Source: a virus
Taxonomy: Duplodnaviria > Caudoviricetes
Direction: 5' to 3' (one strand)
DNA: 42,766 nucleotides
Virus record (IMG/VR): IMGVR_UViG_3300037479_000361
Span: 1 to 42,766 of that record
The first letter of the stretch is position 1; each line of letters starts with the position of its first letter. This document shows positions 10,065 to 33,662 of this stretch, piece after piece. The notes under the pieces are model-generated. The model was not told the DNA's origin. It ran no database searches and saw nothing but the letters and a program-made list of their open reading frames with translations. The translations under genes were made by a program, and so were the position numbers.

Positions 10065-10087
10065 GATGCGCGCCTCCTCGTGGTGTC

Positions 10088-10294: not shown

Positions 10295-10335
10295 CCCGTT
10301 CCCCCTCCCCGGAGAGATGCGGCCGGCCGCGCGGC

Positions 10336-10730: not shown

Positions 10731-10733
10731 GCC

Positions 10734-15198: not shown

Positions 15199-15238
15199 GC
15201 TTGATGTCTTCCGACGACGGACTGCGGGACCTGTCTGA
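14930..15238 (+). CDS. LuxR/sigma-region-4 type HTH protein (start may be 15002)
   Basis: LGERDREIL...GEREDEIAAVMGVAPATVRNRL. Confidence 0.75.
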   Translation: MVDTASTDPPAPGFESLWQARLRSMTLPAPTVGLAPLGERDREILIRWIAGEREDEIAAVMGVAPATVRNRLMRLLALARRVQLGGRDLELDVFRRRTAGPV

Positions 15239-15902: not shown

Positions 15903-15906
15903 AGGG

Positions 15907-16137
15907 GTGGCCTATCGTCCCGCGACGTTTTGGGCCGCGCGGGGGCCGTGGGTCTTGACCTGCTTGGGGCCAGAAGGCCGTGGGACGTGCGCGTGGGAAG
16001 CCCGGGCGAACACGATGCTGGACGTTGCGATGCTCGCTCAAGAGCATCTGGGGTTGACGCTTTCTTCTGGGCGTGGCAGTGGCGGTCGAGCGCGCCAGCC
16101 ATTCGCGGATCATTGGGTCCGATGGACTTCCGCCTGA
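15907..16137 (+). CDS. Small C..C..H..H protein
   Basis: Fills gap between terS and terL. Confidence 0.45.
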   Translation: MAYRPATFWAARGPWVLTCLGPEGRGTCAWEARANTMLDVAMLAQEHLGLTLSSGRGSGGRARQPFADHWVRWTSA

Positions 16138-16138
16138 C

Positions 16139-17692: not shown

Positions 17693-17706
17693 GAGGAGCG
17701 ACGCAA

Positions 17707-18525
17707 ATGGACCTGAGCCGGCTGATCGGTCGCAGTCTTTCCGATGGGCGCCGCTGGTGGTATTGCGGACCGCAACGATCACTCACTGTACAGCTCGCGT
17801 CGTGGCGGTGGTCCGTGGGATTCCACATCGGCGATCACGACGGGAAGGACGAACGCGGCATCGGGTTCCATGTAGGGTTCGTCTACGTTACTCTCTCCGG
17901 CTTCGGACCCCGCGTGGCGACCTCCCTTGGTCTCAAGCGATCACGCGGACCAACGCAGCGTCACTATGGAGTCTCTCTTCATGGTGGCGCTGTGTGGGTC
18001 GATTGGGCGCATGATTATTTGAGCGCGACGAAGGCGTCTGGGAAGCAGCGCCAGTGGATGGACTACGATCTCTACGGTCAGACGCCTACAGGAGGATGGA
18101 CCTGGAGCTGGTCGTGGCTCGACGCCCTGCTGGGGAAGTCCGTATATTCCTCCCGCCCCCTTCAGGGCCCAGGGAAGGCATGGGTGTATTGCCCTGAGGG
18201 ACGCTATGAGGCGATCGCAACGATCGAGATGGCAGAATGGCGGCGCCCACGGTGGCCGTGGCCAGCACGCCTCCGCCGCCTGGAGCTAAACATCCCCAGC
18301 GGCATCCCTGTGCCTGGCAAGGGGGAAAACTCCTGGGACTGCGGAGATGATGCCACCTACGGCGTCACGATGTCGATGCGCCCAGGCGAGACGTTGGTAC
18401 TCGCCATCCAGCGGTTTGTCCGGGAGTGTATCTTGCGCGATCGTGAGAAGTACGCGAACGCAAGCTGGACTCCACGGGAAGCCTGGGCGAAGGCGATCTG
18501 GGAGAAAGCAGGGACCCCGTCATGA
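17707..18525 (+). CDS. Conserved Trp-rich phage hypothetical protein
   Basis: GAGGAG SD; WRRPRWP and PGKGENSWDCGDD motifs. Confidence 0.75.
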   Translation: MDLSRLIGRSLSDGRRWWYCGPQRSLTVQLASWRWSVGFHIGDHDGKDERGIGFHVGFVYVTLSGFGPRVATSLGLKRSRGPTQRHYGVSLHGGAVWVDWAHDYLSATKASGKQRQWMDYDLYGQTPTGGWTWSWSWLDALLGKSVYSSRPLQGPGKAWVYCPEGRYEAIATIEMAEWRRPRWPWPARLRRLELNIPSGIPVPGKGENSWDCGDDATYGVTMSMRPGETLVLAIQRFVRECILRDREKYANASWTPREAWAKAIWEKAGTPS

Positions 18526-19295
18526 CGCGCGTAGTGCTCGCCATTCCGCGCTTCCGGTTCATCTACCCGGCGGCGGAGCGATTCCTCGTCGAGGCGCTCC
18601 AGCGGCTGCGCCCGCCTCAGTGGGACGTGCATGTGATTCCAGGGGATACCTTGGCGGAGTGTTATCTGGACGAGGCGCGCGAGCGGATTGCCGAAGAGGC
18701 AGTCAATCTCGGCGCAGACGCGGTGATGATGGTCGACGCGGATCAATACGTGGCTGGAGAAGAGACGGAGCGGTTGTTGACCGAGACGATCGCCGGGCAG
18801 TGGGCGGCGCTCGGCGTGCCGTACCCTTGTCGTGGGCGTGGTGATCCTGGGTGGCATCACCCGCCTGAGCGCACGTCCCCGACAGAGGACGATCTGGACG
18901 AGATGCTGGACGCGATCGAGCGCGCAGCGCCGCTGGCGTGTCGTGGGTTCATCGGCGGCAGTGCGTTTGCGATGTGGGTCCCGGCGCTGGCGCGCATTCC
19001 GCGGCCCTGGTTCTTGCGTGAGTCCACTGAACGGATGGTGGGGGAGGATGTGTGGTTCAGCCGACGAGCCCTGGCGGCCGGGTGCCGGATCGGGATTCAC
19101 TTTGGGATACGCGCCGCGACACACTATGGAGGCTACCCATGGAAAACGGACGAGATGATCGCCAGGATCCAGTTCCGCCTGAGAGCGCACCAGCTGCACC
19201 GGAAGCTGAGCCCAGCTCCCAGAAGCCCCTCACCGACGTCGACTACAAGACTGTCTGCGCCTGCGGAGCCGACCTCTCGTCCGCCAGCTTCATGA
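18522..19295 (+). CDS. GT-A fold glycosyltransferase (GT2-like)
   Basis: VMMVDADQ DxD motif; RPWF...GEDVWFSRRALAAG. Confidence 0.8.
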   Translation: MTRVVLAIPRFRFIYPAAERFLVEALQRLRPPQWDVHVIPGDTLAECYLDEARERIAEEAVNLGADAVMMVDADQYVAGEETERLLTETIAGQWAALGVPYPCRGRGDPGWHHPPERTSPTEDDLDEMLDAIERAAPLACRGFIGGSAFAMWVPALARIPRPWFLRESTERMVGEDVWFSRRALAAGCRIGIHFGIRAATHYGGYPWKTDEMIARIQFRLRAHQLHRKLSPAPRSPSPTSTTRLSAPAEPTSRPPAS

Positions 19296-19450
19296 TGACG
19301 GACATCACTGGCGCCCCGCTGCCGTTGGGACCCAACGGGACGCCGGTCGTGTTGATGCCACTGCGGTGCCGCAAATGTGGCGCATACCAATTCAAGGTTT
19401 CTGAGGGGCGCTCGCGGATCTACATTCCTGGGCGCGGCAGGATTTCCTAA
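19139..19450 (+). CDS. Zn-ribbon protein, Mu Com-like cysteine spacing
   Basis: GGAGG SD; VCACGADL...PLRCRKCGAY. Confidence 0.65.
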   Translation: MENGRDDRQDPVPPESAPAAPEAEPSSQKPLTDVDYKTVCACGADLSSASFMMTDITGAPLPLGPNGTPVVLMPLRCRKCGAYQFKVSEGRSRIYIPGRGRIS

Positions 19451-19482
19451 CCCACAGCAGAATCCTTCCCGGCGGGACGAGG

Positions 19483-19545
19483 GCTCGCTGACTCATTGAC
19501 CTGAGAGGCGCCCGAGGTCCAGGAGCGCCTCGATGGGTCACGAGC
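19483..19545 (+). promoter_or_regulatory. Hairpin ending right before the ATG at 19546, containing a CUGA-stem-AGG motif
   Basis: GCTCG/CGAGC, TGACTCATT/GATGGGTCA and GAGGCGC/GCGCCTC stems; CTGA-CTCA-ttgacc-TGAG-AGG at 19488-19508. Confidence 0.7.
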
Positions 19546-19815
19546 ATGCCGGCCGATAGCAGACTTCCGATCGGGCAGTTGACCCTCGAATCTCCTTCGC
19601 AGAAGTGTCTCGCGGTGACTCCAAGCGATAGCGTTGACCTGGATCCTTGGGCCCGTGCGCTCTATGTGGGGAACACCGGCAACGTGCGGGTACTCACCTG
19701 GAGCGGGGATGATGTGATCTTCAGCAACGTCCAAAACGGGATGATCCTGCCCGTATCCGTCAAGCGCGTCTTCGCCGCCAGCACAACGGCGACCAACATC
19801 GTGGCGTTGTGCTAA
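19546..19815 (+). CDS. Head spike base protein (RcGTA Rcc01079-like)
   Basis: AVTPSDSVDL..ARALYVGNTGNVRV...GMILPVSVKRV..TTATNIVAL. Confidence 0.88.
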   Translation: MPADSRLPIGQLTLESPSQKCLAVTPSDSVDLDPWARALYVGNTGNVRVLTWSGDDVIFSNVQNGMILPVSVKRVFAASTTATNIVALC

Positions 19816-19838
19816 GGAGTAGGAGGAGGCCATCGACG

Positions 19839-20480
19839 ATGCACACCGACTATACGCGCCTGCGGCCAGCGACCAGAGAGCAGATCCGCGCCGCGTACCG
19901 CGGACAGTTTCAGGATGAATGGCTCATAGCGTTCTGGCGCGCGTGGCGCGCACCTGGCCATGGGTCACGACTGCTCGATCTCCTATCTCCCTATCCGGCC
20001 ATCCGGGGCGGGGCCCGGAACTTCTTTGCGCAGACGACCTCGGTGCGCATCGGCACGGTGGCCGCCGCCTTCAAGACGATCTTGCAGCTGCTCGGAGGCA
20101 CCAACGTCATCACGGTGGTGCAGTGGGCGGAGATCGGCTTCTTCGGCACAAGCAACACCGCGGAGCCCGCGAACGTCGAGATCCTGCGCCAAACGTCCGC
20201 GGGCACCGGGGGCAGCCCGCGAAACCCCCTCAAGACCAAAGACACCAGCACCTCGCTGCTCGTGACCGGGCAAGAAGGACCGGCCTCGGGGGCCTGGACG
20301 ACCGAACCTACTGCTGGAGACATCCTGAAGGCCTTTCCGATCCACCCACAGTCCGGGTTCGTCTACCCGCTGCCGTTACCTGACGGTGAAGTCGAGATGC
20401 CGTCCGCCGGTCGCCTGGGCTTGCGGGTCAACATCGCCGCGGCCGTCGATGTCCGTGTGGGGTGGGGAGGCGAAGAGTGA
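19839..20480 (+). CDS. Virion beta-sandwich protein with a 58-aa N-terminal leader ending PAIRGG
   Basis: Strong AGGAGGAGG SD; composition switches from Arg/Trp-rich to Thr/Gly-rich after GG. Confidence 0.7.
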   Translation: MHTDYTRLRPATREQIRAAYRGQFQDEWLIAFWRAWRAPGHGSRLLDLLSPYPAIRGGARNFFAQTTSVRIGTVAAAFKTILQLLGGTNVITVVQWAEIGFFGTSNTAEPANVEILRQTSAGTGGSPRNPLKTKDTSTSLLVTGQEGPASGAWTTEPTAGDILKAFPIHPQSGFVYPLPLPDGEVEMPSAGRLGLRVNIAAAVDVRVGWGGEE

Positions 20481-20782
20481 CCCTGATCTGGCAACAGCTG
20501 GAGGGCCCACAGACTCTCCAGACCCTCGGCCTCGCGGCAGTCACCCTCGTGACGGTCGCCCTCGTGGCCTGGTGGCGGTCCGATCCCATCTGGGCCCACC
20601 GATTCGTTCCCTGGCGCCAGCTCGCGCTGTGGGGGTGGCAAGTCCTGTGTTGGGCTCGCGGGCATCAGTGGATGGGCCGCGAGCTCGACCTGATGCGCGC
20701 ACTGCCAGGGTTTCGCAATCCGTACCTGTGGATCTGCGGCCGCTGTGGCGCCGCGGCCGTGCGGGAAGAGGACGGGACGTAG
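20477..20782 (+). CDS. Membrane-anchored small Zn-binding protein (DUF1660-like)
   Basis: TM segment; LCWARGHQW...ICGRCG. Confidence 0.6.
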   Translation: MTLIWQQLEGPQTLQTLGLAAVTLVTVALVAWWRSDPIWAHRFVPWRQLALWGWQVLCWARGHQWMGRELDLMRALPGFRNPYLWICGRCGAAAVREEDGT

Positions 20783-20788
20783 AGTCAA

Positions 20789-21619
20789 ATGCCAGTTGTT
20801 GCTCCGGCCATCTTCCAGCGGGTCTTCCAGTCGAGCCTGACGGCCTCGGCTCGCGCGGGGGCAACCGTGACCGCCAGCGCGACGGCGCATACGATGGGGT
20901 CATGGGCCTCGCTGATCGATCCTACGAACGTCCCCAGTTACGGGATCTATGTCGTCGTGCGCGATATCAGCGGCGCGGCGGCTGACACGCGGTTCCTGAT
21001 TGATATCGGCATCGGTCCCAGCGGCGGCGGCAGTGAAGCGGTCGTCCTGCCCTTCCTCGATGTCGGCGCCGCCGACTCAGCGACGAATGCGCTGGGCAAG
21101 CAGTGGTACTTTCCGATCTACATTCCGACCGGTCTCCGCGTGTCCGCCCGCGGGCAGGCGGTCACAGGGAGCGACACCTGTACAGTCGCGATCTGGCTGG
21201 CACAGCAGCCATTGTTCCCCTACCTCGTCTCAGCGTGGGATACCTACGGTGAGAATGCCGCGGCCAGTTCAGGGACCTCGGTGACTGCAGGGAACGGCGT
21301 CTTTGGGTCCTGGACGCAGATCGTCGCGAGCACGTCTCGGTTTCACAACCTGTGGCACTCAGGGTATAGCATCGGCACCGACACGACCATCGTGGCCGCG
21401 GACACGCTGGTCGAAATCGGGCACGGGCCGGATAGCGCGAACGTCCAGTCGATCGGCATGTGGCGGTATCGCCAGAACGCGAGTGAAGCCCTGGATGGGC
21501 CGATGCCCGAAATTCCGCTCTACAAACCCGTCCCGAGTGGCGCCGGCCTGTTTGCCCGCATCGCCTCGGCGGAAGCCGAAGCACGGCGCGTCGTCATCCA
21601 CGCCGGCTTGGCGGCCTAA
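20789..21619 (+). CDS. Virion protein with internal two-domain duplication
   Basis: GATVTAS..GSWASL and GTSVTAG..GSWTQI repeats. Confidence 0.7.
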   Translation: MPVVAPAIFQRVFQSSLTASARAGATVTASATAHTMGSWASLIDPTNVPSYGIYVVVRDISGAAADTRFLIDIGIGPSGGGSEAVVLPFLDVGAADSATNALGKQWYFPIYIPTGLRVSARGQAVTGSDTCTVAIWLAQQPLFPYLVSAWDTYGENAAASSGTSVTAGNGVFGSWTQIVASTSRFHNLWHSGYSIGTDTTIVAADTLVEIGHGPDSANVQSIGMWRYRQNASEALDGPMPEIPLYKPVPSGAGLFARIASAEAEARRVVIHAGLAA

Positions 21620-21623
21620 CGCG

Positions 21624-21806
21624 ATGCCGATCCTCGCGTGTCCCATCGATGGCCTGGCGGTCGCGCTGATCTCTCCAGCACTGCGCGGGGACGTGGCGCG
21701 CGATCAAACGACGCACCTGCATCTGATGTGGGACGAGACGTTTACCTGTCTGAACGGGCACCAGTGGCGCCTACGGGCAGAGATGATCTTGGAGCGCGTC
21801 GGCTGA
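21624..21806 (+). CDS. Small Zn-binding protein
   Basis: CPIDG...TCLNGHQW. Confidence 0.6.
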   Translation: MPILACPIDGLAVALISPALRGDVARDQTTHLHLMWDETFTCLNGHQWRLRAEMILERVG

Positions 21807-21807
21807 G

Positions 21808-22146
21808 ATGGCCGTCACCGAGCACGCGAGCGGGACGCAAACCGCGACGATTGCCACCGAGCACTTCCTCGGGACGGATCCGGATTCGACCGATGGGGCA
21901 TTTCAGTTTGTGGTCGACCTCTCCAACATGGCCAATGCCGACGACCTGGAGATCCGGGTCTACGAAGCGGCACTGTCGAGCGACGTGGCCTCACAGCAGG
22001 TGCACATGTGGCCCATCAAAGACGCTCAGGCGGATGACCTGTTCATCTCGCCGGCCTTGGTCTTGCTCCATCGGTGGCGCTTCTCGATCAAGCAGGTCGC
22101 CGGGACCGGGCGCTCGTTCAAGTGGAGCATCCGGCGGGTCGCGTAG
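21808..22146 (+). CDS. Small virion beta-sandwich protein
   Basis: SGTQTATIATEH...VDLSNMANADDLEIR...QVAGTGRSF.WS. Confidence 0.75.
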   Translation: MAVTEHASGTQTATIATEHFLGTDPDSTDGAFQFVVDLSNMANADDLEIRVYEAALSSDVASQQVHMWPIKDAQADDLFISPALVLLHRWRFSIKQVAGTGRSFKWSIRRVA

Positions 22147-22494
22147 ATGAGCGGATTCGTCGGTTACGGCTTCGAGGTCCTCCACCCGGAAGCCGGCCCG
22201 CCACCGCCAACCGAGCATTATGCCGCGCGCTTGATACGTCGGCCCGCCTCCATCCGCCACCGGCGTCGAGCGGTCTGGACCGCACGGGTGCAACTATTGG
22301 CGCCGCCTCCTCCCCCAACGGTCCGTCATGCGACGATGGAGACGCAGATCGGCCGAACAGTCCGCCACCGCGCGCCTCGAGCGGTGCGCGCAAGCATGAC
22401 GTCACTGGCCCCGGCGCTCCTGGGCGCCGCGCCGGCCGCCGCAGGAGTCTCGCGATGGAGATGGATCGGCCTGAAAGCGACACTCGGGATCTGA
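22147..22494 (+). CDS. Arg/Pro-rich hypothetical protein (possible linker/adaptor)
   Basis: Abuts upstream stop and fills the gap. Confidence 0.55.
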   Translation: MSGFVGYGFEVLHPEAGPPPPTEHYAARLIRRPASIRHRRRAVWTARVQLLAPPPPPTVRHATMETQIGRTVRHRAPRAVRASMTSLAPALLGAAPAAAGVSRWRWIGLKATLGI

Positions 22495-22506
22495 GAGGAG
22501 CCGCCC

Positions 22507-23334
22507 ATGGGTAGCGTCGTCCTAGATGAAGTCACCCTGCTTGCCGCGATCGCGACCGGCAGCGCGGAGTATAACTTCAAAGGGCGCGAGGTGGCGATCA
22601 AGGTCACCATCGAGTTCTCGGTGGGTTCCGACGCCGGGGGGGTCATCCTCGAGGAAGCGGTGACCTCAGGCTTTGCGGGCACGTGGGCGCAACTGGCCAA
22701 TGTACCATGGGTCGCGGCCAACCGCGTCCATACCGTGCAGATCAATCAGGTGCTGCGCATCTTGCGCGCGCGCATCTCCCCGAACATCGGGAATGGCACC
22801 GTCACCGTCAAGCTCTCCGGAGGGCTCGACAGCACCGGCGGCGGCGGGGTCGCCATCGACGGCTTCCCGCTGGGGATCCGCTCGCTGCAGGACTGGCTCT
22901 CGCGTCTGCTCACGGGGGCGAATGCCCCAGTGGTGGAAGTCCGCGGCTATGATAGCGTCAACAACGCGATCCGCGTGATCTCGGGATCCCCGGCGATCGC
23001 ACATCTCTACAAGACCTCCAACCGGGTGAACGCGGGCGATATCATCACCTGGGTCCCGGCCAACACGCTGCGGACGCGCATAATGCAGTATTCCATGAGT
23101 GGCACGGCCGCAGGGCTTGTGGCCTATCGAGAGAACACCGGTTCGATCGGCGCGCCGGTGTGGACGAGTCGCTATGAGCATCGACTCGGCGGGGACGGGC
23201 CAGGGGTTATCAACGCGCAGCCTGAACCGATCGTGGGACCGGCCGGGGATGGCGTGGGCGCGACGGCAAAACTCGAAGTGCTCTCCGGCACCGGGACCTT
23301 CTACGGCACGATGCTGGGTTACGAAAGCACCTAA
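22507..23334 (+). CDS. Two-domain virion/decoration protein
   Basis: GAGGAG SD; two beta-rich domains joined by a Gly linker. Confidence 0.7.
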   Translation: MGSVVLDEVTLLAAIATGSAEYNFKGREVAIKVTIEFSVGSDAGGVILEEAVTSGFAGTWAQLANVPWVAANRVHTVQINQVLRILRARISPNIGNGTVTVKLSGGLDSTGGGGVAIDGFPLGIRSLQDWLSRLLTGANAPVVEVRGYDSVNNAIRVISGSPAIAHLYKTSNRVNAGDIITWVPANTLRTRIMQYSMSGTAAGLVAYRENTGSIGAPVWTSRYEHRLGGDGPGVINAQPEPIVGPAGDGVGATAKLEVLSGTGTFYGTMLGYEST

Positions 23335-23339
23335 AGGAG

Positions 23340-23636
23340 ATGGGTATGGGTCTTCCCGTGCGCGTCGTGACGGAATCGAATGGCGAGTATTCGATCCGGT
23401 CGCCGATGCAGGGCATGACGATTGAGGAAGCCCGTGCGCGTGCCCAAGAGGATCAGCCGCATGTGCGCATCGTGACGGATGCAGAAGAGATTGCGCACCT
23501 ACTGGAACTCTCCTGGGAAGACCGAAAACGTCTGGACACCGAACTCCGTGCCCTGCGCGATGCGGTAGAGGAGATGCAGCGGCGGTACGAAGCGATCATC
23601 CGGGATCTGGAGTCCCGCTTGGCGCGGCAGGTCTAA
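23340..23636 (+). CDS. Coiled-coil protein (fibre chaperone-like)
   Basis: AAAGGAG SD; C-terminal heptads. Confidence 0.65.
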   Translation: MGMGLPVRVVTESNGEYSIRSPMQGMTIEEARARAQEDQPHVRIVTDAEEIAHLLELSWEDRKRLDTELRALRDAVEEMQRRYEAIIRDLESRLARQV

Positions 23637-23637
23637 T

Positions 23638-24711
23638 ATGGCAACCCAGACCGTACGTGGATTCATGATTCAGGAACCCTGGACCAACACGTCCAACAAC
23701 ACACCCACCTACAACACCTTGCTGATGGACGCAGCGGGTGAACAAGCCGCCTATATCGTTCGTGCCCCGAAGGCGGGGAACATCCGCAATGTCCATGTGC
23801 GAGCAAATGCCGTGACGACGGCCACGGACAGCGACTTCCGCGTCGAAACAGTCAGCCTCACGACAGGATTGCCCACAGGTACGTTGTGGGCCGCCAACAC
23901 CAACGTCACTGTCGCTGCGGCCTCAATTACCGCCAACACCTGGATTCGTAGCGGGGACCTCACTGCTAGTGCGGTGGTTGCACGCCGAGATCTGCTGGCC
24001 GTTGTCGTCACGCCGACCGGCACGCCCAACTATGAACTCTCGACGTTCGCCCCTGGCGGATCGCCAGGAGCAGGATTCCCTTACGCCGCCTCGTTCACGT
24101 CAGGAGCGTGGGGGAAGATTGCGCGGGTACCCGTGGTGGCGCTTGAGTACGACGATGGCTCTTTCGACTACATGCCCGGAGTACTGCCAGCGTCAGCGCT
24201 CAATACCCATTCGTTCAACAGTAGTTCGACTCCTGACGAGATCGCTGCATTCTTCCAGTTTCCAGTTCCGGTGCGTCTCGCGGGCGTATGGTTGTGGGTC
24301 GATAGCGACAACGACTTCGACGTAGTGGTCTACAATGGAGCCGGTACGGAAGTCGAGACGGCGGCTGAAGATGCCGATGTCGATGCGGCGATAACTCCGC
24401 ACATGCCGCACTTTGTCTGGTTCGCCGCCTCTGAGGCTCAGGCTCTTAGCACCAACTTCCGAATTTCTATTCGGCCAACAACGACAGCGAATATCGCCAT
24501 CTATTCTTTCGATGTGCACACTGCCGCGATCCTCGATCAGATGGCCGGTGGCCAGTTGTGGCATCATTCGACTCGGACGGACGGAGGCGCGTGGACGCAA
24601 CTGACGACTCGGCGTCTCTTCATGGGGATCATCGTCGATGGACTCGATGATGGAGTCGCAGGCGGGGGAGGCAGTTACCAGCACAGCGCACTCGTTGGGT
24701 CATTGGGCTAG
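23638..24711 (+). CDS. Virion adhesin/decoration protein, two beta domains plus Gly-linked C-terminal peptide
   Basis: Thr/Asn-rich beta pattern; ends DDGVAGGGGSYQHSALVGSLG. Confidence 0.7.
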   Translation: MATQTVRGFMIQEPWTNTSNNTPTYNTLLMDAAGEQAAYIVRAPKAGNIRNVHVRANAVTTATDSDFRVETVSLTTGLPTGTLWAANTNVTVAAASITANTWIRSGDLTASAVVARRDLLAVVVTPTGTPNYELSTFAPGGSPGAGFPYAASFTSGAWGKIARVPVVALEYDDGSFDYMPGVLPASALNTHSFNSSSTPDEIAAFFQFPVPVRLAGVWLWVDSDNDFDVVVYNGAGTEVETAAEDADVDAAITPHMPHFVWFAASEAQALSTNFRISIRPTTTANIAIYSFDVHTAAILDQMAGGQLWHHSTRTDGGAWTQLTTRRLFMGIIVDGLDDGVAGGGGSYQHSALVGSLG

Positions 24712-24721
24712 ATGGCCATCA

Positions 24722-25094
24722 TCACCTGCGAAGAGAGGAGAGATATGACAGAACAGTCTTGCGGGTTACTCCTATATCGAAAGCGATTTTCTCGATTGAA
24801 TGGAAATCCCGCCGCATTTCCAGAATCATCTCTTTATCTCTTTGTGCAAACCGTTTTCCACTTGCCTGGCGTCCCATGTTGATGTGGCGACCGTTGTGCC
24901 GTGCGGGATCGCAGTGTGGCTATTTGTCGGGTGCGCGTAAGATGATCAGGAATCTTCAGACCAAGCCTCATGGCTTTATGTGCGATCGCTACAGGAGATC
25001 GACCCAAGAAATCAGAGACTTTCTGTCCGCCGTATTCTGCGTAGTACTTCTTGAGATATGCAATTTCTTGTTTACTCCAGCGGTATGCAAGCAT
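24722..25094 (-). CDS. Antisense low-GC insert: double-HTH DNA-binding protein with +1 frameshift at TTTT 24854-24857
   Basis: WSKQEIAYLKKYY...LGRSPVAIAHKAMRLGL, then in the shifted frame DKEMILEMRRDFHSIEKIAFDIGVTRKTVLSYL; GGGGGTG SD; 123 aa if repaired. Confidence 0.7.
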
Positions 25095-25120
25095 GGAATG
25101 ACACCCCCGGTATTCTCGAC

Positions 25121-28100
25121 GTGGCGACAAGAACAAGCATAGCCTCGGGAAACTGGACCGCCGCTATTTGGGACGGAGCAGTTCCGACCGCCGCCGACGA
25201 TGCGGTGCTCAACCATCTCGTCACTGGCGACGCCACCACGCTCGTCTGCCGAGACTGCACCATCAATGCTGGAGGTACCTACCGCGCGTCGCGCAGCGTC
25301 AATAGTACCCTGACGATTGGCCGCAACCTTGTGGTCGCTGGCGGCATCCTGGATCTGGGCACCTTCAACGATCGCATCCCCGCGAACGTCCAAACCAGGC
25401 TGCTGTGGAACATCGTCGGGCTTGAGGCCGGGTACGTGGGTGGCGACACCGAGGTTCCGCTGGCGACTGATCCTGGGCTCTGGGTCATTGGGAATGGCCA
25501 GGTCTTTGCGCACGGCGCCATCAAGGATACTTGGACCAAAATCGTCACGGCCCCCATCGGCGTCGGAGCAACCAGCGGTGCGATCTCCGGAATTTACACC
25601 CAGGGCTGGGCGCCAGGAGATGAGATTGTCTTCTCTGACACGCACCTTCGGCTCTCGAACTCCGACAACCAAGATGAGGTGCGCACGCTAAGCACGATCT
25701 CGGGAGTCGTCGGCGATGCGAGTCGCACAATTACTTGGGCGTCGGGACTCTCCTTCGCGCACGAGTACCTCGCTGTGCCAGTGTGGACCGATCCGTTCGG
25801 CGATGCCTGGAATGAAGTGTTGGCCGGCGAGGTCTCGAATCTGACCAAGAATGTCATCCTCGACACGTCGACGGGCACCAACACGGACGCGCCGCATTTC
25901 ATGGTCCTGGACAACGGGAAGGTCTATCTCGAAGACGTGCGGATCGACCACTTCTCGCCAGTTTCAACGCGCAACCCGATGGGGCGCTATGCGCTCCATA
26001 TCCACCAGCAGTTCGAAGGCTCTCGCGGCAGTTACATCCGCCGCTGCATCGTCGCCAACACTAAGGGAGGCGGCGTCTTCGTCCATGAGAGCCATGGGGT
26101 CACAGGCGAAGACAACGTGTTCTACAACGTGGCGCGCGTTTTCTCCACAGGCGAGCAGGTCTCGACGGCGCTGAACCTGGAAGTCACGGTTACCCCGCCC
26201 TCTCGCGGCCCTGACATCATCCCGGCGATCTCGGCAAATGACTTTCGGTGGGAGCGCGGCCTGTCGATGCGCACAGGCACTACGGCTGGCAGCGATACGC
26301 GATCGGCGGCGTTTTGGGCTGGCGTGGGCGCGTTCAACGCATCCTTCTTGGGTTGTGTGGCCTCGGGGCATTCTGGAGGTTCAGACTCGGCGGGGTTCCT
26401 CTGGCCTGAAGGCGCGGCAAACTCCTTTCAGCAAACCCATGCGCCGCGCTGCGAGTCGCACTCGAACTGGCCCCATGGCTTCTTCCTCCATCAGAACTCT
26501 GGCCATGTGGCTCCAATGCAGGTTATGGTCGACTGGATCGCGTGGCGCAACGGTCGCCATGGAATGCAGGAGGGCGCGTATGTCTCCGGATTTCATACGC
26601 ACCAGTTTCGCGGGATCGAAAACGGCGCAGCGCAACTGATCCACTCGGTGATCGGTCGGCAGGTCACCACGTTCCTCGCTGATCCGCGCAACCTTGCCGG
26701 CGCTTTCGGCGTGCGCATCCTGCGCTATGTTCTCGATTCGGTGGTCGATTCGTACTACCGCGATGGCGTCGTGCGGAATGTCGCGTCTGGCCAAACGGCC
26801 GTTGGGCACGACCCCACCGGCGGCGTTGCCGGCTCGCTCATTTTCGCCCAGTTCGCGCGGGTAACCTGGTCAAACATCAGTGGCACATTGCTGCTCTTTG
26901 GTCCCGGACCGCCTCCACCGGTCGGTTCGCATCTGCGGATACGCAACGCGACTGGGCTGGCGTCGCTCGGCCACGGGACCGATTTCACGATCTATCGTCA
27001 GGACGATCCCGCCAATCCAGGCGTGTTCGCCGCCAACGTCAACGGCGATGTGGACACGCCCGATACCGCGAATACGGTGCCACTGACCCCGAGGTGCTTC
27101 TTGACGATCTCGACCGGGGATGACGGCCTCGAGCCGGTCGCCAATGCCCAAGGGCAGCGGATCGTGACGCTGACAGTCGCCACGCGCGATGCGACTGCCT
27201 TTGCGCGCCCCGACGCGCATGTCGTGGATTTCTACCTGGATAATGACTCCCAACTGCTCGCCAGCGTGGTCCCCGATGCCAGCGGCGTCGCGACCTTTCA
27301 GTATAACGTTGCGGCCTTTCCGCATCGCCGGCCGTACTTCTTTGCACGCGCCCGTTACACCAGCGGTCCGAACGCGAGCGTCGAGGGCACAGCCAGCCGG
27401 GTGCTCCGGGTGCGCCGCGCGATCGGCGCCTCGCAGGTCGATCCTACCGCCCCTACCCTCACGTCGCTCACGAACCCCAGCACGGGCGTACTGCGTTGGG
27501 CCTGGGGCGACGTGGCCAACGAAGTCTCTTATGATCTCGAGACTTCGCCGGACAACAACAACTGGACCGTTCGCGGGACTGCTGGCTCGAATAGCATCAC
27601 TGCAGACTGGACCGCCGCCACGCCGGGGGCGACCTATTGGGGACGCGTAGTCGCAATCGGGCCGACCGGAAACCGGTTTCCGAGCAACAGCATTCAGCGG
27701 ACGCTGGCGGTCGCCGTCCCTGCGGCGCCGCTGAACCCGCGCGCAGCGAACGTGACGACGACCACGTTTGATGTGCAGTTCGAGGACAACAGTGGAGGCG
27801 GAGACGACGACGAGACCACCTGGCATGCGCGCGTCCGAACGCCACCGACCACTGGCACGTATGAGGCCACGATCAATCAGGCAACGGCAACTGGTGCGGG
27901 AACTGGCTCGACCGTGACGATCGCTATTACCGGACGCACGGCGTCTACGCAGTATGAGGTCGAAGTCTGGGCCTCAAATGCCAGCGGGGAATCGACCCGG
28001 CAGACCTTCACCATCACGACGAATGCCGCGCCTCCGCCCAATCCAGGGACCCCGACGATCAACAGCGCCGTGGCGATCTCGCCGACCCAGATCGACGCGA

Positions 28101-28735
28101 CCTGGACGAACGTGGCTGATGAGCAGGGGTACGATCTGGAGTCCTCACCGGCTGGGGCTGGAACTTGGACGGTGCGGCGCACCTTTTCGGCGGACGAGAC
28201 CTCTGGAAGTTGGCTGACTGCGGTGCCGAATACCGCCTACGATATCCGCGTCGTGGCGTTTTCTGGTGCAGTGCGCGCGGCTAGCGGGTCGATCGCGGCG
28301 ACGACGCCGGCGGCGATCCCGGCGGCGCCCATCTCACCGCGCGTGGCGGATATCGGGACGGGGACGGCTAATTTCATCGTGACCGACAACTCCGGGGCCG
28401 CGGGAGATCCTGAGACCGCGTTTGAAGCACAGTATCGAGACGAAACAGACCCGGGGAACCCGAGCGCCTACGTGAGCCTGTCGAACGCCGCCTCTCAACC
28501 CGGCACCGGGACGGAGATCACCTTTGCGTTGAGCGGGCTCACGGCTGGCCGGACCTACCGCGCGCGATCGCGCGCGATCAATGCGACGGGCAACTCCGCG
28601 TATGCCGAGACGACGTTCACGACGCAGCCGCCCGCGCCGCCCGGCCCTGTAGGGGGCTCCGGCAGAGCCGATGGACGCTTCGGCTCCTATCTCCGCGCGC
28701 TGGTGGTCGGCCGGCGCAAGTTCTGGTCGTCATGA
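25121..28735 (+). CDS. Large virion adhesin/depolymerase: G8-like + CEMIP/fibrocystin-type beta-helix + Ig-like + four Fn3 domains
   Basis: TSIASGNW..WDGAVP; GEVSNLTKNVIL; MGRYALHIH; VHESHGVTGEDNVFY; Fn3 W..Y..V.A patterns. Confidence 0.8.
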   Translation: MATRTSIASGNWTAAIWDGAVPTAADDAVLNHLVTGDATTLVCRDCTINAGGTYRASRSVNSTLTIGRNLVVAGGILDLGTFNDRIPANVQTRLLWNIVGLEAGYVGGDTEVPLATDPGLWVIGNGQVFAHGAIKDTWTKIVTAPIGVGATSGAISGIYTQGWAPGDEIVFSDTHLRLSNSDNQDEVRTLSTISGVVGDASRTITWASGLSFAHEYLAVPVWTDPFGDAWNEVLAGEVSNLTKNVILDTSTGTNTDAPHFMVLDNGKVYLEDVRIDHFSPVSTRNPMGRYALHIHQQFEGSRGSYIRRCIVANTKGGGVFVHESHGVTGEDNVFYNVARVFSTGEQVSTALNLEVTVTPPSRGPDIIPAISANDFRWERGLSMRTGTTAGSDTRSAAFWAGVGAFNASFLGCVASGHSGGSDSAGFLWPEGAANSFQQTHAPRCESHSNWPHGFFLHQNSGHVAPMQVMVDWIAWRNGRHGMQEGAYVSGFHTHQFRGIENGAAQLIHSVIGRQVTTFLADPRNLAGAFGVRILRYVLDSVVDSYYRDGVVRNVASGQTAVGHDPTGGVAGSLIFAQFARVTWSNISGTLLLFGPGPPPPVGSHLRIRNATGLASLGHGTDFTIYRQDDPANPGVFAANVNGDVDTPDTANTVPLTPRCFLTISTGDDGLEPVANAQGQRIVTLTVATRDATAFARPDAHVVDFYLDNDSQLLASVVPDASGVATFQYNVAAFPHRRPYFFARARYTSGPNASVEGTASRVLRVRRAIGASQVDPTAPTLTSLTNPSTGVLRWAWGDVANEVSYDLETSPDNNNWTVRGTAGSNSITADWTAATPGATYWGRVVAIGPTGNRFPSNSIQRTLAVAVPAAPLNPRAANVTTTTFDVQFEDNSGGGDDDETTWHARVRTPPTTGTYEATINQATATGAGTGSTVTIAITGRTASTQYEVEVWASNASGESTRQTFTITTNAAPPPNPGTPTINSAVAISPTQIDATWTNVADEQGYDLESSPAGAGTWTVRRTFSADETSGSWLTAVPNTAYDIRVVAFSGAVRAASGSIAATTPAAIPAAPISPRVADIGTGTANFIVTDNSGAAGDPETAFEAQYRDETDPGNPSAYVSLSNAASQPGTGTEITFALSGLTAGRTYRARSRAINATGNSAYAETTFTTQPPAPPGPVGGSGRADGRFGSYLRALVVGRRKFWSS

Positions 28736-28981: not shown

Positions 28982-29171
28982 TGCCATCACCGCCGCGATG
29001 TTCCGCCGCCGCCGCGCCCCGATCACATCCCGCGCCGGCCGCGGTCGGGTCAGCGCCAAGATCAGTCACCTGCGCGGTGAAGGCGAGCCGCAGAAAAAGG
29101 CCGTCGCCATGGCGCTCAACATGGAACGCGCGGGGCGCCTGGGGCCACGCGGCGGTTATCGCCGCTCCTGA
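28965..29171 (+). CDS. Small basic phage protein (DUF6496-like)
   Basis: VSAKISHLRGEGEPQKKAVAMAL; strong SD. Confidence 0.7.
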   Translation: MAKTADAITAAMFRRRRAPITSRAGRGRVSAKISHLRGEGEPQKKAVAMALNMERAGRLGPRGGYRRS

Positions 29172-30985
29172 TGGCGCTCGCGCTTTCTGATCCCTCGTCG
29201 CCGCAGGATCCGCGCGCGGCGCGGTCCTCGCCGATCGATCGGTCGTTCGGCACACCAGACGAGCTCCTCCGGCGCGTGATCCAGGACTTCGAGGCGAGCT
29301 ATGCCTTCCTGCGCCCGTATTTCACGAAGTTCCTGCGGTTCTATCGGATGTACCGGTCACACAGTCCCAAGAAGGCGCGCCCATGGCGCGCCGATGTGTT
29401 CGTGCCGATTCCCTTTGCCTCGGTGGAACACGGCCTGGCCACGATTATCGACGCCTACAGCCAGCGGCCGCTCTTCACGGTGCTCCCGCGGGAAGGCACG
29501 GACTACACAGGCGCCAAACAGTTCGAGAAGTACTTAGAGTGGGAAGACGACGATGCGGCCACGCTGCTGCCGCTCTTCTCGAGCTGGAAAGACACGCTGA
29601 ACTACGGTACCGGGTGGCAGAAAGTGCTGTGGGATTGGGCGGCGCAGCGCAACAGCGTCGAAGACATCTCGACGTACAACTGCTTCCCGGATCCTTGGGC
29701 CGAGGATGTCGACGACGCCGAGTACATCATCCATCGCGCGCTGCGCAGCCCGACCTACGTGCAGCGCATGGTCGATGCCGGCTTCTACGACTTGCAGGGT
29801 GAGACCGTCGAAGGGCTCGCCCGGATGCCGTGGGGGCAGGATCTGGAAAGCGAGCAGCTCTTGGGCGAGATCGGGCTCTCGCGGCCTGGCGATCAAGCAC
29901 AAGGGCGGTATCGAATCGAAGTCTTGGAGCGGTGGTCAGACAATTCCATCATCACGGTGCTCAACCGCCATCGCGTCGTGCGGGCCTGGGCCAACGGCTA
30001 CGGCATCAAGCCCTTCGTCCGTTACGTCGACCACTTCGTGCCCCATGAGCTGATGGGGATTGGCGAACACGAGGTCATCGAGCGCCTCGTCAGCGAGCTC
30101 AACGACATCCGCGGTCAGCGCCTGGACGTCGTCAGCATGATGATCAACAACATCCTGGTGGCCAGCAAGCTCGCCGGGATCGATCCCGAGACGCTGATCT
30201 GGCGACCGGGGCAAACCATCTGGGCGAACGACATCCAGGGGATCCGTCCACTGATCGCCTCGCAATCGGGGAACCCCGCTCTCGGCGTCCAGGAGGAAAC
30301 CGTGGTGCGGTTCGACGTGCAGGAAGCCACAGGGAACTGGGGCTACAACCAGGGCCAGGTCCCCAACCGCCGAGAAGCCGCGACGACCGTGCTGGCGCTG
30401 CAGCGGGCGGCCGGCCTACGCTTCACGTCTAAGATGCGTTACAACGAGACCGGCGCCATGCGCAAGCAAGCTAAGCTTCGGATGCGGAACGCGCAGCGAT
30501 TTCTCCCCGCGACGCGCTGGATCCGCGTCACCAACCAGGTCCCGGTCCAACTACGCCGGGAGGATCTGGCGGGCGAATACGACTTCATCCCCACGGTGAG
30601 CAGTGCAGAGCCGCGAGAGGCCCGGCGCGCCGCGATCGGACAGATCCTGCCGATCCTGATGAACTCCGAGCGGATCCGTGACGACAAACTGCTGGCGTTC
30701 GTGCTCGATCTCTACAACGTGCGTGAGAAAGAGGCGTTTCTGCGCACCGACGAAGAGATGCAGCAGGTGGCGCTGGCGCGCGCGCTCCAACAGGTCGCCG
30801 CCCGCGCGGGCGGGAATTCTTCGCGAGGAGGCGAACGGCGCATGCCGACGATGATTGGCGGGATGGCGCCAGAGGCGGCTCAGCTTCCGAGCGAGCTTGA
30901 GGATCTGGGCGGGAATGGCGATGGTGGCGCCCTGGACGCGGCCGGGCGCCAGTATCTCGCCGAGGCGCTCCAGCTGCGAGGGTAG
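29171..30985 (+). CDS. Portal protein (podovirus-type)
   Basis: 604 aa; YGTGWQKV, FPDPWA, YGIKPF, EAATTV patterns; head-module position. Confidence 0.9.
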   Translation: MALALSDPSSPQDPRAARSSPIDRSFGTPDELLRRVIQDFEASYAFLRPYFTKFLRFYRMYRSHSPKKARPWRADVFVPIPFASVEHGLATIIDAYSQRPLFTVLPREGTDYTGAKQFEKYLEWEDDDAATLLPLFSSWKDTLNYGTGWQKVLWDWAAQRNSVEDISTYNCFPDPWAEDVDDAEYIIHRALRSPTYVQRMVDAGFYDLQGETVEGLARMPWGQDLESEQLLGEIGLSRPGDQAQGRYRIEVLERWSDNSIITVLNRHRVVRAWANGYGIKPFVRYVDHFVPHELMGIGEHEVIERLVSELNDIRGQRLDVVSMMINNILVASKLAGIDPETLIWRPGQTIWANDIQGIRPLIASQSGNPALGVQEETVVRFDVQEATGNWGYNQGQVPNRREAATTVLALQRAAGLRFTSKMRYNETGAMRKQAKLRMRNAQRFLPATRWIRVTNQVPVQLRREDLAGEYDFIPTVSSAEPREARRAAIGQILPILMNSERIRDDKLLAFVLDLYNVREKEAFLRTDEEMQQVALARALQQVAARAGGNSSRGGERRMPTMIGGMAPEAAQLPSELEDLGGNGDGGALDAAGRQYLAEALQLRG

Positions 30986-30989
30986 CAAG

Positions 30990-31301
30990 ATGCCGAAGAT
31001 GACCGTCGAGGTGGCACAGCAGCTGCTCGCGCGGCCGCAGTATGTCATCGAGTTTCTTGACGAAGCCATCGCGACGCTCGCCGCGGCCACGTTGGATGGC
31101 GATGTGACGCCCGAGGAGCTCTTGCGCCGCCGCGGGATCCGCGATGGGCTCAAGATGGCCGCAGGGTTCTTTCATGAAGCGCGCAGTGTGCTGCGAGCGG
31201 CGGCGGACGAGGCGGCTGACCAGGATGCCGCGAGAACGACCGATATGGTCCCTCCGGGGTTGCTCGATGCCTTGGTGTACCCGCGGACGAAGGAATCCTG
31301 A
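30990..31301 (+). CDS. Small helical protein between portal and scaffold (Bbp19-like position)
   Basis: EELLRRRGIRDGL helix; synteny. Confidence 0.65.
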   Translation: MPKMTVEVAQQLLARPQYVIEFLDEAIATLAAATLDGDVTPEELLRRRGIRDGLKMAAGFFHEARSVLRAAADEAADQDAARTTDMVPPGLLDALVYPRTKES

Positions 31302-31480
31302 TGGACGGCCGCGAACCCCTGCGCTCGTGTGAAGATCGGCTGCTGACCTGGTTGCGCGCGCAAGCGAAGCAGATCGCCCATGGCGCGGTGCAGGTCCAGC
31401 TGAAAGCCGAAGTTCAGGACGGCGTGGTCGTGATGATCCGTTTGACGGGCCCCGCCGAGATCGAGCAGCGGTTTCGATAG
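31301..31480 (+). CDS. 59-aa DUF2292/YezD-like protein (absent from ORF track)
   Basis: MDGREPLRSCEDRLLTWLRAQAKQIAHGAVQVQLKAEVQDGVVVMIRLTGPAEIEQRFR; TGATG coupling. Confidence 0.7.
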   Translation: MDGREPLRSCEDRLLTWLRAQAKQIAHGAVQVQLKAEVQDGVVVMIRLTGPAEIEQRFR

Positions 31481-31487
31481 ATCGTCC

Positions 31488-31539
31488 CTGACCACATCCT
31501 GGAGGGGGCGCGCAGTTGCGGCGCTCTCTCTTCGTTTTT
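31488..31539 (+). terminator. CUGA-stem-AGG motif overlapping an intrinsic terminator-like hairpin
   Basis: CTGA-CCA-catcc-TGG-AGG at 31488-31505; GAGGGGGCGC/GCGCTCTCTC stem 31502-31530, then TTCGTTTTT. Confidence 0.7.
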
Positions 31540-31551
31540 GGAGGAGGCACG

Positions 31552-32454
31552 ATGTCAACACAACCGACGCCCACTCCTGCCGTCGAGGGAGATGTGCTTG
31601 GACTCTTGACGCCGGAGGCGCCAGCTCCTGGCGCCACGGCTCCGACGCCGGCGGCCGCCGCACCACCTCCTGCGGCCCCCGCACCAGCACCTGCTCCGAG
31701 CCCCACGCCCCCGCCTGCGGCGCCGTGGCTGACTCCTGAGCAGCTGGCCCGATTCCCGGAGATGGCGCGCTTCGCGTCGCTGGACGACGCCCTGGCCGCC
31801 GCCGCCGGGCATGCGCAACTCCTCGGGCAGTACGAAGAGGCCGGGCTGGATCCCGCCGCCGTGCTGCAGGACCTCCTGGCACCAGAACCGGGGACGCAGA
31901 CCGCAACGACCGCCGCGCCAGGGATTGCACCGAACGAGGCTGAGTCTCTGGATGCCGACCTCGCCGATCCGAGTCGCTTCATTGACCGATTCACCACCGA
32001 TCCGCGCGGGACCGTGTATCACCTGATCGACCAGCGGATGCAGGAAGGGTTCGCTGGCCTGATGCAGCGATGGACCGCCGGGGCGGAAGTCGGGAAAGAA
32101 ATCTGGGAGGCGGTGAAGAGCAAGCACCCAGACGCCGCGCAATACGATCGGCAGATGGCTGAACTGATCATGAAGGCCCCGCAGTTGCTCTCGATCTACC
32201 CCAAAGAGGAACTCGGGGAACGGCTCTATGCGATGGTGACCAGCGGTACGACCGCCGCCGCCGCCGCGTCCGCCGCGGCGAGCCAGGCGGCCGAAGCCGC
32301 GCGGGTCGCCGCCATCGACGCCATGCGTGGCACCGTGGGAGAATCCGGCCGGGCCGGAGGGGCTCCTCCAGGAACACCAACGGGTGCCGGCGCTGGCGTG
32401 GTCGACGAACTGCTTGGGAGCGGACCGCCATCCGTGACGCTCCGACCACTCTAA
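31552..32454 (+). CDS. Capsid scaffolding protein
   Basis: Pro/Ala-rich acidic helical protein directly before the MCP; GGAGGAGG SD. Confidence 0.8.
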   Translation: MSTQPTPTPAVEGDVLGLLTPEAPAPGATAPTPAAAAPPPAAPAPAPAPSPTPPPAAPWLTPEQLARFPEMARFASLDDALAAAAGHAQLLGQYEEAGLDPAAVLQDLLAPEPGTQTATTAAPGIAPNEAESLDADLADPSRFIDRFTTDPRGTVYHLIDQRMQEGFAGLMQRWTAGAEVGKEIWEAVKSKHPDAAQYDRQMAELIMKAPQLLSIYPKEELGERLYAMVTSGTTAAAAASAAASQAAEAARVAAIDAMRGTVGESGRAGGAPPGTPTGAGAGVVDELLGSGPPSVTLRPL

Positions 32455-32477: not shown

Positions 32478-33662
32478 ATGCCCACCATTGTCGCCCAGGA
32501 GCACACTGGCAACATCGTCGAGCAACAGCGTAAGCCGGACGTTGCCGACAAGATCTACCTGCTGCAGCCGCAAGAGGCGCCATTTGCGGCGCTGGTGCGC
32601 AAGCTTTCCCGCAAGTCCACGATGAATCCGCAGTTCGACTGGCTCGAGGATGAGGCCGTGCCGTGGGTCGATGCGGTCAACAACGGCGCCGGCTACACCT
32701 CGGGCGCGACTTCCATCGTCGTGGACAACGGCGCGTACTTCGCGCCTCAGGACATGGTCAAGGTCTTCCGGACCGCCGAGACGATGCGGGTCACCGGGGT
32801 CGCGACCAACACCTTGACCGTCGTGCGCGGGTGGGGCTCGACCGCCGCGGCGCTGGTCGACAACGACGTGCTGTACATCATGGGGAACGCGCACCCGGAA
32901 GGCTCGCTAACCGGGGTGGTGCGTCAGACCGTCAAGGTTCGGCGCTTCAACTACACGCAGATCTTCAAATCCCCCAGCCAGCTCACCAAGACGACCGAGG
33001 CTTCGGGGCTCTATGCCACCGCCAGCGAGCGGACGTTCCTGCGCCGGAAGTCCGCGATGGAGCACAACTGGCGCATCAATCGGCAGTTCTGGTTCGGGGC
33101 CCGGAACGAGGATCTCACCGGCTCGACCCCGGTGCGGTCGACTGGAGGGGTCACGCAGTTCGTGACCACCAACAAGACCGTGCTCGCCAACGATGCCGCG
33201 CTGACCCTGGGCGCGCTGGACTCGTTCCTGGAGACGGTGTTCTTCTACGGCTCCAGCACCCGGTGGTGCTTTGCCTCGCCCCACATGATGACGCTGATCA
33301 ACGCGCTCGGCCAGGCGAAGTTGCAGCTCAATCAGGTCGAGCTGGGCCGGGGCGCGAATAACGTCGTCTTCGGGCTCAATGTCGTGCGGTACATCTCCCC
33401 GCACGGCGAGTGTTTCTTCACCTACGATCGGGTGCTCAAGGACTGGGTCTCGACGACCTCCCCGAACGCCGCGGGCAAGGTGCTCTTTGCCCTCGATTTC
33501 GACCCGGAAGACGGCATCGCCTATAGGTACCTGCGCGAGACCGTGCTCAATCGGGACGTGCAGCCGAACGATGCCGACTACTACCTGGACGAGTTCCTGA
33601 CCGAGTGCGGCCTGCAGGTTGGGCAGGAGCGCCGGCATGGGATCTTTGAGATCAGCGGGTAA
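32478..33662 (+). CDS. Major capsid protein (DUF5309/SU10-like) with beta-sandwich insertion
   Basis: FDWLEDE, FNYTQIF, RSTGGV, FLTECGL motifs; TLTVVRGWGSTAA insertion domain. Confidence 0.92.
   Translation: MPTIVAQEHTGNIVEQQRKPDVADKIYLLQPQEAPFAALVRKLSRKSTMNPQFDWLEDEAVPWVDAVNNGAGYTSGATSIVVDNGAYFAPQDMVKVFRTAETMRVTGVATNTLTVVRGWGSTAAALVDNDVLYIMGNAHPEGSLTGVVRQTVKVRRFNYTQIFKSPSQLTKTTEASGLYATASERTFLRRKSAMEHNWRINRQFWFGARNEDLTGSTPVRSTGGVTQFVTTNKTVLANDAALTLGALDSFLETVFFYGSSTRWCFASPHMMTLINALGQAKLQLNQVELGRGANNVVFGLNVVRYISPHGECFFTYDRVLKDWVSTTSPNAAGKVLFALDFDPEDGIAYRYLRETVLNRDVQPNDADYYLDEFLTECGLQVGQERRHGIFEISG

Follow-up and report, generated by a model that had tools for sequence, protein, structure and literature searches.

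The late region of a virus of the class Caudoviricetes carries, between its portal and capsid genes, a very small gene followed by overlapping RNA hairpins, which raises the question of whether the encoded protein and the RNA together control entry of transcription into the genes behind them. The window analysed here, i.e. the whole 42,766 bases of IMG/VR record IMGVR_UViG_3300037479_000361, is linear, has a G+C content of ∼66%, and is estimated to be 62% complete. Contigs from two freshwater DNA runs are identical to its sequence, with no variants; one of these runs may be where the record itself came from.

The late region and its 59-residue protein

The genes for the small and large terminase subunits (15195–17692, + strand) were recognized by PHROG matches, and that for an SU10-type portal protein (29171–30985, +) by PF23899 (E = 7.6e-10) and PHROG portal/adaptor matches. 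The major capsid protein (32478–33662, +), also SU10-type (PF17236, E = 1.9e-42; phrog_1328), has its best matches at 37–45% identity, Bacillus and Paenibacillus prophages among them. Ahead of it lies the gene for a 300-residue protein (31552–32454, +), which a preliminary description of this DNA had named scaffold; its position before the capsid gene, as in relatives, makes this probable, but no informative family match was found in Pfam, PHROG, or NCBIfam. The gap between the portal gene and the small ORF is filled by a gene of 103 codons (30990–31301, +; start chosen by us) with coding-like codon use and no match in the same three collections, at a position where relatives carry a gene for ∼65–135 residues. 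Elsewhere in the window, tyrosine recombinase and RadC-like genes at 8713–11565 (−) suggest a temperate phage. A phage protein encoded at 14912–15238 has weak sigma-region-4-like matches, and the product of 17446–18525 (+), behind the terminase, has a weak, below cut-off match to the CBASS inhibitor family Acb3 (E = 7.5e-4; phrog_20814). The terminase-portal gap holds ∼11 kb of accessory genes within 16073–28735 (+), including one for a 1,225-residue β-helix/FN3 protein.

The small ORF (31301–31480, +), noted in the preliminary description as unannotated, is a real gene. It is preceded by AAGGA, its start overlaps the preceding stop codon (TGATG), and it ends in TAG. A phmmer search of 1.84 billion representatives yielded four small homologues (P0002–P0005; 43–53% identity, E = 5e-10 to 5e-7); P0006 (740 residues), at first a fifth, proved to be a spurious long match and was dropped. 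The codon score is 0.14 in frame, compared with −0.80 and −0.50 in the other sense frames, and one antisense frame over the ORF scores 0.11. The protein, a candidate RNA-binding antiterminator, is near neutral in charge, with nine Lys or Arg and eight Asp or Glu residues.

The preliminary description had also likened the protein to DUF2292 and proposed an HMM search as a check. That search came back empty, with no Pfam DUF2292 (PF10055) match for the ORF or its four homologues at the cut-off of 22 bits, nothing for PF10055 in the window at E ≤ 10, and no Pfam, PHROG, or NCBIfam match of any kind for the ORF. A DUF2292 profile made from 32 of 42 loci from sampled genomes, leaving out tandem-domain, long-tailed, and near-duplicate forms, gave the ORF just 10.5 bits. 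When the ORF family was compared with DUF2292 by hhalign, the score was 31.7 (P = 88–92%), against maxima of 14.7 for 150 column shuffles, 27.8 for 150 five-column block shuffles, and 13.2 for the reversed profile; comparison with XtrA (PF17356) gave P = 0.7% and revealed no profile similarity. For a reciprocal test, a profile built solely from the 59-residue protein and its homologues was run against 2,382 small ORFs on both strands of 120 phage loci that had been picked by RNA pattern only. Four matches were obtained at E ≤ 1, all located 17–214 nt upstream of the hairpin on the same strand, and the top two (E = 4e-5 and 1.5e-4) are DUF2292 proteins over the Pfam cut-off.

Predicted structures share a helix-strand-strand order, on comparison of secondary structure with no superposition: the model of the phage protein (pLDDT 71) has a helix at residues 9–24 and strands at 33–39, 42–49, and 55–58, and that of DUF2292 (pLDDT 82) a helix at 14–26 and strands at 30–37 and 40–48. 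Relative to DUF2292, strand 1 of the phage protein contains a four-residue insertion that lengthens the β-hairpin, and the C-terminal part is longer. A homodimer is predicted with a score of 0.62 (best control 0.00), the runs sharing at least 83% of contacts at a partner pLDDT of at least 74; of known structures, 20 of 30 solved pairs and 1 of 23 single chains attained the mark for such a call, counts that are approximate for the alignment used. In the predicted dimer, strand 1, insertion included, would pair with its mate across the interface. Judged by profiles and models, the protein is a distant DUF2292 relative with a longer β-hairpin and no formal member, the link being called remote because a Pfam DUF2292 match is lacking; the kinship first claimed has thus held up, but membership of the family has not.

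Word-index protein searches found no further homologues, and the best 120 of 1,095 proteins collected with a merged profile (A7) are all ordinary DUF2292/OscA proteins. The best ESM Atlas match to the 59-residue protein (0.83) is at chance level, fold searches gave nothing under E = 0.001 in BFVD and a best Z of 4.2 among PDB representatives, and no solved DUF2292 relative was found by sequence. A tblastn search of phage records with P0002 produced two weak matches (E = 4), query A1 matched two proteins in 401 Bacillota genomes, both longer and unrelated, and PF10055 was found in 0 of 50 viral records. Scans of viral, metagenome, and genome contigs with A1 and A2 confirmed no homologue locus; these blanks carry little weight, since the same scan confirmed no canonical DUF2292 in viral contigs even though such genes are present.

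Two overlapping folds ahead of the probable scaffold gene

The RNA element directly behind the small gene (copy 1; 31483–31510, core 31486–31507, +) begins its CTGA at 31488, 7 nt past the TAG of the ORF, exactly as first reported. The CUGA-stem-AGG arrangement then proposed is present, but a more fitting description has up to 7 bp in an outer stem (31483–89 with 31504–10), then a GA/A internal loop, then an inner stem of 3 bp capped by a CAUCC loop. Its 3′ side overlaps a terminator-like site (31501–31539, +), in which a hairpin of 10 bp (31502–31530; 11 bp with G31501–U31531) is predicted at −20.5 kcal/mol (z = −3.4), with 1 of 200 shuffles as strong. The hairpin is followed by UUCGUUUUU (31531–39), by the ribosome-binding site of the next gene, GGAGGAGG (31540–47), and by the ATG at 31552. 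A 10-bp hairpin whose tail adjoins the scaffold ribosome-binding site therefore exists as described, but its U-tract, with 7 U of 9, is interrupted by CG, and a stock terminator scan did not call the site. A relaxed scan returned it as the sole + strand site, with five sites on the − strand; of the three TTTTT runs that the + strand contains, one belongs to this site. A sigma-70 scan, which is blind to phage promoters, found no promoter here.

Because G31501–G31510 are common to both structures, the predicted folds exclude each other, in agreement with the preliminary description. When growing transcripts are folded at equilibrium, the element (7-bp outer stem, −14.3 kcal/mol) is the prevailing structure between 31508 and ∼31526, the two folds are mixed at 31529, and the terminator wins by 31532 with energies that are nearly balanced (−21.6 versus −18.9 kcal/mol). 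With the element held, only a 4-bp hairpin is predicted to be left, ending several bases short of the U-tract, and with the element forced in the full-length RNA, the scaffold ribosome-binding site is predicted to be paired in another way.

Copy 1 keeps every feature of the element found behind DUF2292 genes (see below), i.e. the Y-G pair, the GA/A internal loop, and the C-G closing pair; its outermost pair is C-G, as also at L238 and L239, whereas most Bacillota copies have G-C. Its folding alone is no better than that of shuffles (z = −0.26), the loose pattern CTGA-N-GAGG was seen 40 times in the window compared with 36 expected, and a covariance model built without the window gave copy 1 a non-significant 9.6 bits (E = 2.6 window-wide), ninth of 29 window matches. 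With a covariance score of just 9.6 bits, copy 1 is significant only through its position. What goes beyond chance is the coincidence by which a structured pattern, with a background of ∼1e-5 per base, is found 7 nt past a DUF2292-like gene and in overlap with a terminator-like hairpin; by arithmetic from that background, the chance of a match within 60 nt of the ORF stop is ∼0.001. The best covariance-model match in the window, at 6910–6936 (−; E = 3e-4), has GU/G in place of GA/A, lies inside a long open frame, and is probably due to chance.

No Rfam match was found at the element, either in the window or in 20 reference loci. CUGA resembles the K-turn or C/D box motif; this identity was rejected, as a box C partner is lacking and G-A-G stands on the 3′ side. 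A further candidate, Moco-II (Rfam RF01713), a short bacterial cis-regulatory hairpin that likewise has an internal loop, was also rejected, there being no Rfam match to it in the window region or the reference loci and its alignment rows showing a different sequence pattern (PMC2864571).

The hairpin behind DUF2292 genes and in other phages

The preliminary description had noted that DUF2292 genes are often followed by CTGACC...GGAGG, and this association is borne out. A fixed pattern, tuned after both the DUF2292 loci and the window had been seen, matches a hairpin at most 150 nt behind 17 of 42 DUF2292 genes, compared with 6 of 1,550 control windows, the other 25 genes having no match within that distance. 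In the recurring element, a Y-G pair closes the outer stem; next comes a GA/A internal loop, beyond which an inner stem of 3–4 bp starts with a C-G pair and ends in a short loop. Among 24 copies chosen by hand, paired cells make up 97.6% and two-sided changes affect 22 cells; on these two measures 0 of 500 shuffles came as high, and the values for slid controls were far below. As many pairs with two-sided changes arose in 34 of 500 shuffles, and all counts of this kind are inflated by relatedness. Base pairs thus change together in these copies; the covariance model, first proposed as a check, gives no significant score for copy 1. The unpaired A of the internal loop and the adjacent C are 90–100% conserved across phyla beside stems that co-vary, which suggests recognition.

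A terminator overlaps the element in 13 of the 42 DUF2292 loci; the four matched loci without one are all from Pseudomonadota. The distance from stop codon to element is 2–7 nt in the window and 2–11 nt in 7 of the 13 terminator-coupled loci, and reaches up to 102 nt. DUF2292 genes were found in 27 of 151 Bacillota and 9 of 151 Pseudomonadota genomes. At five Pseudomonadota loci (L238, L239, L241, L243, L246), oscA-like genes are followed by the hairpin, at some of these loci as a tandem pair, but by no U-tract terminator, which suggests another output there, e.g. translation or Rho control. At L205, L207, and L231, a SAM or cobalamin riboswitch directly upstream of the DUF2292 gene, with the hairpin and terminator following, may form a two-step cascade.

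A second copy, missed in the preliminary description, lies in the intergenic region at 19487–19509 (+), with G-C, C-G, and U-G outer pairs, the GA/A loop, a 4-bp inner stem, a UUGACC loop, and no U-tract on its 3′ side. The first gene behind it encodes a head spike base protein of the RCAP_Rcc01079 family (19546–19815, +; NF048002, E = 2.4e-28, over the cut-off). The same tuned pattern has two matches in 85.5 kb (both strands), both sense, intergenic, and ahead of virion genes; two or more strict-pattern matches occurred in 34 of 200 shuffled windows, and the chance of one match in the ∼1,150 intergenic sense bases of a rough gene set is ∼0.01–0.02. The covariance model gave copy 2 a non-significant 9.2 bits (E = 3.4), twelfth of the 29 window matches. 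Copy 2 is taken in by a competing long hairpin (19482–19554, +; −40.8 kcal/mol, z = −3.4), a predicted translation-level platform that pairs AGGAG, GGGU, and the region of the AUG at 19546. Forcing the element is predicted to free AGGAG almost fully, and GGGU and the AUG partly; the folding is suggestive of a translation-level gate over the spike-base start. That start is overlapped, in another frame, by an ORF of eight codons (19533–19559) that has AGGAG ahead of it.

Among 162 capsid-anchored loci (1.28 Mb, duplicates included; best identity 45%), no DUF2292-like ORF better than E = 1.9 was found, from which it follows that the cassette is dispensable for such capsid modules. The 36 pattern matches in these loci are at background level, the covariance-model matches lie inside genes in nine of nine inspected, and a comparable cassette is absent from the 17 loci that were mapped; the cassette looks like an insertion. 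One locus (L203, +4411) has a pattern match with a weak terminator call. In L003 and L004, a different, 69-residue gene, whose product may resemble Acb2, is inserted at the same place before the scaffold gene (∼3816–4130), so the site may accept insertions.

When phages were searched RNA-first, 24 of 120 matches passed a loose terminator test and ∼10 were clean by eye. The genes checked behind such gates in phage or prophage-like loci include those for sigma-region-4 proteins (L228, L370), a portal (L524), and, in an XtrA-linked case (L385), a terminase small subunit; the others belong to no clear family. Both phages and bacteria have hairpins that stand alone, next to no DUF2292 gene (L223, L524, and copy 2), and one further gene separates the DUF2292-like gene from the hairpin at L500, L502, and L510. 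Two phage DUF2292-like proteins encoded upstream of a hairpin and terminator, at L510 (2214–2378, −) and L567 (92–280, +), have short strand-1 insertions and are intermediate between canonical DUF2292 and the 59-residue protein. Two DNA-pattern scans with the window's own letters were mostly noise, the one giving 121 matches and no cassette, the other 120 matches and one that was convincing (L304). There, an XtrA gene is followed by a hairpin of DUF2292 type fused to a terminator (1498–1755, −). Behind XtrA genes at seven further loci (L370, L372, L377, L385, L386, L387, L394), a related hairpin is joined to a terminator, and a sigma-like or terminase small-subunit gene comes next.

A candidate antitermination switch and its alternatives

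It is moderately probable, in our judgement, that the locus works by protein-dependent antitermination, in which the 59-residue protein on the element lets transcription into the scaffold and capsid genes. The protein, as a predicted homodimer, would bind the GA/A-loop hairpin in the nascent RNA behind its own gene, and the bound element would keep the overlapping terminator-like hairpin from forming, with read-through to the probable scaffold and capsid genes. Since the element loses to the terminator by ∼3 kcal/mol at the U-tract, termination is the predicted default, and modest binding, worth ∼3 kcal/mol, would flip the choice. The regulator lies upstream of its own gate, is apparently translationally coupled to the portal run, and may therefore accumulate first. 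As the protein would come from the portal transcript, we infer a positive feed-forward arrangement in which capsid is switched on only once the protein has built up, placing portal before shell. More tentatively, the protein might act in trans at copy 2 and free the spike-base start region; a terminator at that upstream position might shut off the regulator itself, should all the late genes be transcribed as a unit.

Several other readings account for part of these observations. A host factor, whether a DUF2292/OscA protein, a Nus-type factor, or a small ligand, might read the RNA switch, the phage ORF being a passenger or modifier. The stand-alone hairpins and the frequency of host DUF2292 genes (above) are in its favour; the phage nevertheless keeps a DUF2292-like gene 7 nt from the hairpin where relatives lack both, and a trans-acting protein equally predicts stand-alone copies, and we hold this reading, the foremost of the alternatives, to be unlikely. 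Less likely again is that capsid levels are set by a leaky constitutive terminator or a separate late promoter, with the hairpin a ligand-free kinetic trap and the ORF in an unrelated role. Dominance of the element in folding up to ∼31526, the imperfect U-tract, and the protein with weak sigma-region-4-like matches would fit it, but the near-invariant A and C beside co-varying stems point to recognition, and the sigma-70 scan, which cannot see phage promoters, found none.

Ribosome-coupled attenuation would dispense with RNA binding by the peptide altogether, as a ribosome at the ORF stop would cover the 5′ arm of the element and so favour termination. The short stop-to-element distances here and in 7 of the 13 terminator-coupled loci are what it predicts; against it, the distances extend to 102 nt, a whole gene may intervene, and the protein is a conserved folded domain, which makes the idea improbable and places it behind the previous two. 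The protein could also bind the RNA and repress, favouring termination or blocking translation to limit capsid output, and the scaffold ribosome-binding site is indeed still predicted to be paired with the element forced. However, of the two folds it is the terminator-excluding one that is conserved and co-varies, and a ligand stabilizing it would favour read-through; repression accordingly ranks below attenuation. That an ordinary terminator lies by chance beside an unrelated small gene agrees with the weak covariance-model score and the lack of a Pfam match, but it needs a ∼1e-5-per-base pattern at most 10 nt from a gene independently ranked as DUF2292-like, and we regard it as very improbable.

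Protein-dependent antitermination has precedents. HutP of Bacillus subtilis, a hexamer needing histidine and Mg2+, binds NAG motifs and destabilizes a terminator, and in hutP-hutH, as here, the regulator gene comes first and an intercistronic terminator next, with read-through brought about by an RNA-binding protein, according to the available text of a 2025 review of RNA-binding antiterminators (PMC12591593). The phage protein differs in its 59 residues, its predicted dimer, the lack of a sensor domain, and a co-varying structured hairpin as target, and HutP is not among the sequence or fold matches listed for it. In BglG/SacY CAT-RAT and ANTAR systems, as the same text describes, the protein stabilizes an RNA hairpin overlapping a terminator, and ANTAR targets can overlap ribosome-binding or start sites (PMC12591593). 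The competing hairpin of copy 2 overlaps such sites as well. The phage system is set apart from these by a different RNA, the absence of regulatory domains, and its late-gene context, and Pfam and NCBIfam revealed no HutP, CAT, or ANTAR domain in the ORF; what it shares with all three is a predicted element fold that overlaps and excludes the terminator (through 31501–31510). In phage lambda, N, acting with nut, and Q let transcription pass terminators before later genes by modifying RNA polymerase processively. The likeness lies in a phage protein carrying transcription past a terminator ahead of later genes; here, however, one overlapping fold would suffice, a single + strand terminator-like site having been found.

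Also close to the locus are DUF2292/YezD/OscA (PF10055, NF033785) and PBSX XtrA (PF17356). The former share a helix and β-hairpin, the [YH]G..QDG.V pattern, and the order of a gene followed by a GA/A-loop hairpin, often with a terminator. They differ in that the phage ORF is under the Pfam cut-off, with four extra strand-1 residues and a longer C-terminal part, in that the phage loops are CAUCC and UUGACC whereas those of bacterial copies are A-rich, and in that the phage copy lies within a late gene run whereas bacterial copies precede sulfur or transport operons. XtrA is alike as a small phage gene followed by a related hairpin and terminator before sigma-like or terminase genes, and the DUF2292 and XtrA profiles match each other at P = 78.5%; the ORF family, by contrast, does not match XtrA (P = 0.7%), and most XtrA-linked hairpins have other internal loops and poor covariance-model scores. 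The preliminary description knew of no characterization of such a system, and our search agrees: no paper on a DUF2292-type protein-RNA pair appeared among literature listings and abstract openings, a set outside which lie the original OscA and PBSX papers that could bear on novelty. No mechanism for the DUF2292 family was found in print, and "DUF" does not occur in the available text of the 2025 review (PMC12591593).

The gene at the locus is real, and so is the family-typical RNA structure paired with it, which most likely serves as a gate in the manner of HutP or CAT-RAT antitermination, though the minimal protein is unrelated to theirs and the RNA undescribed. The locus contributes a lengthened variant, its placement in mid-operon, with the portal gene before it and the capsid gene after it, and possibly a second, translation-level gate. 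A wider reading, which we put forward as a speculative possibility, is that DUF2292 and XtrA form one large unrecognized class of dimeric RNA-binding activators of 50–70 residues with matching hairpins, and that the phage's lengthened variant, insulated from the host copy by its own loop sequences, serves as a two-platform late-gene timer, with antitermination before scaffold and capsid, translation release before the head spike genes, and a regulator translated from the transcript of the portal gene, which would put portal ahead of shell.

If antitermination by the 59-residue protein is correct, it would provide a function for the widespread, unexplained family DUF2292/YezD/OscA, and possibly for XtrA, and would lengthen the short list of known protein-RNA antitermination pairs by a very small one. 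B. subtilis carries both families, as search controls revealed, and the general claim is therefore testable in a laboratory strain. Diverged protein-hairpin pairs could, moreover, serve as orthogonal switches. For the phages themselves, it would mean that ordering late genes within a single run of genes need not call for a new promoter or a new sigma factor.
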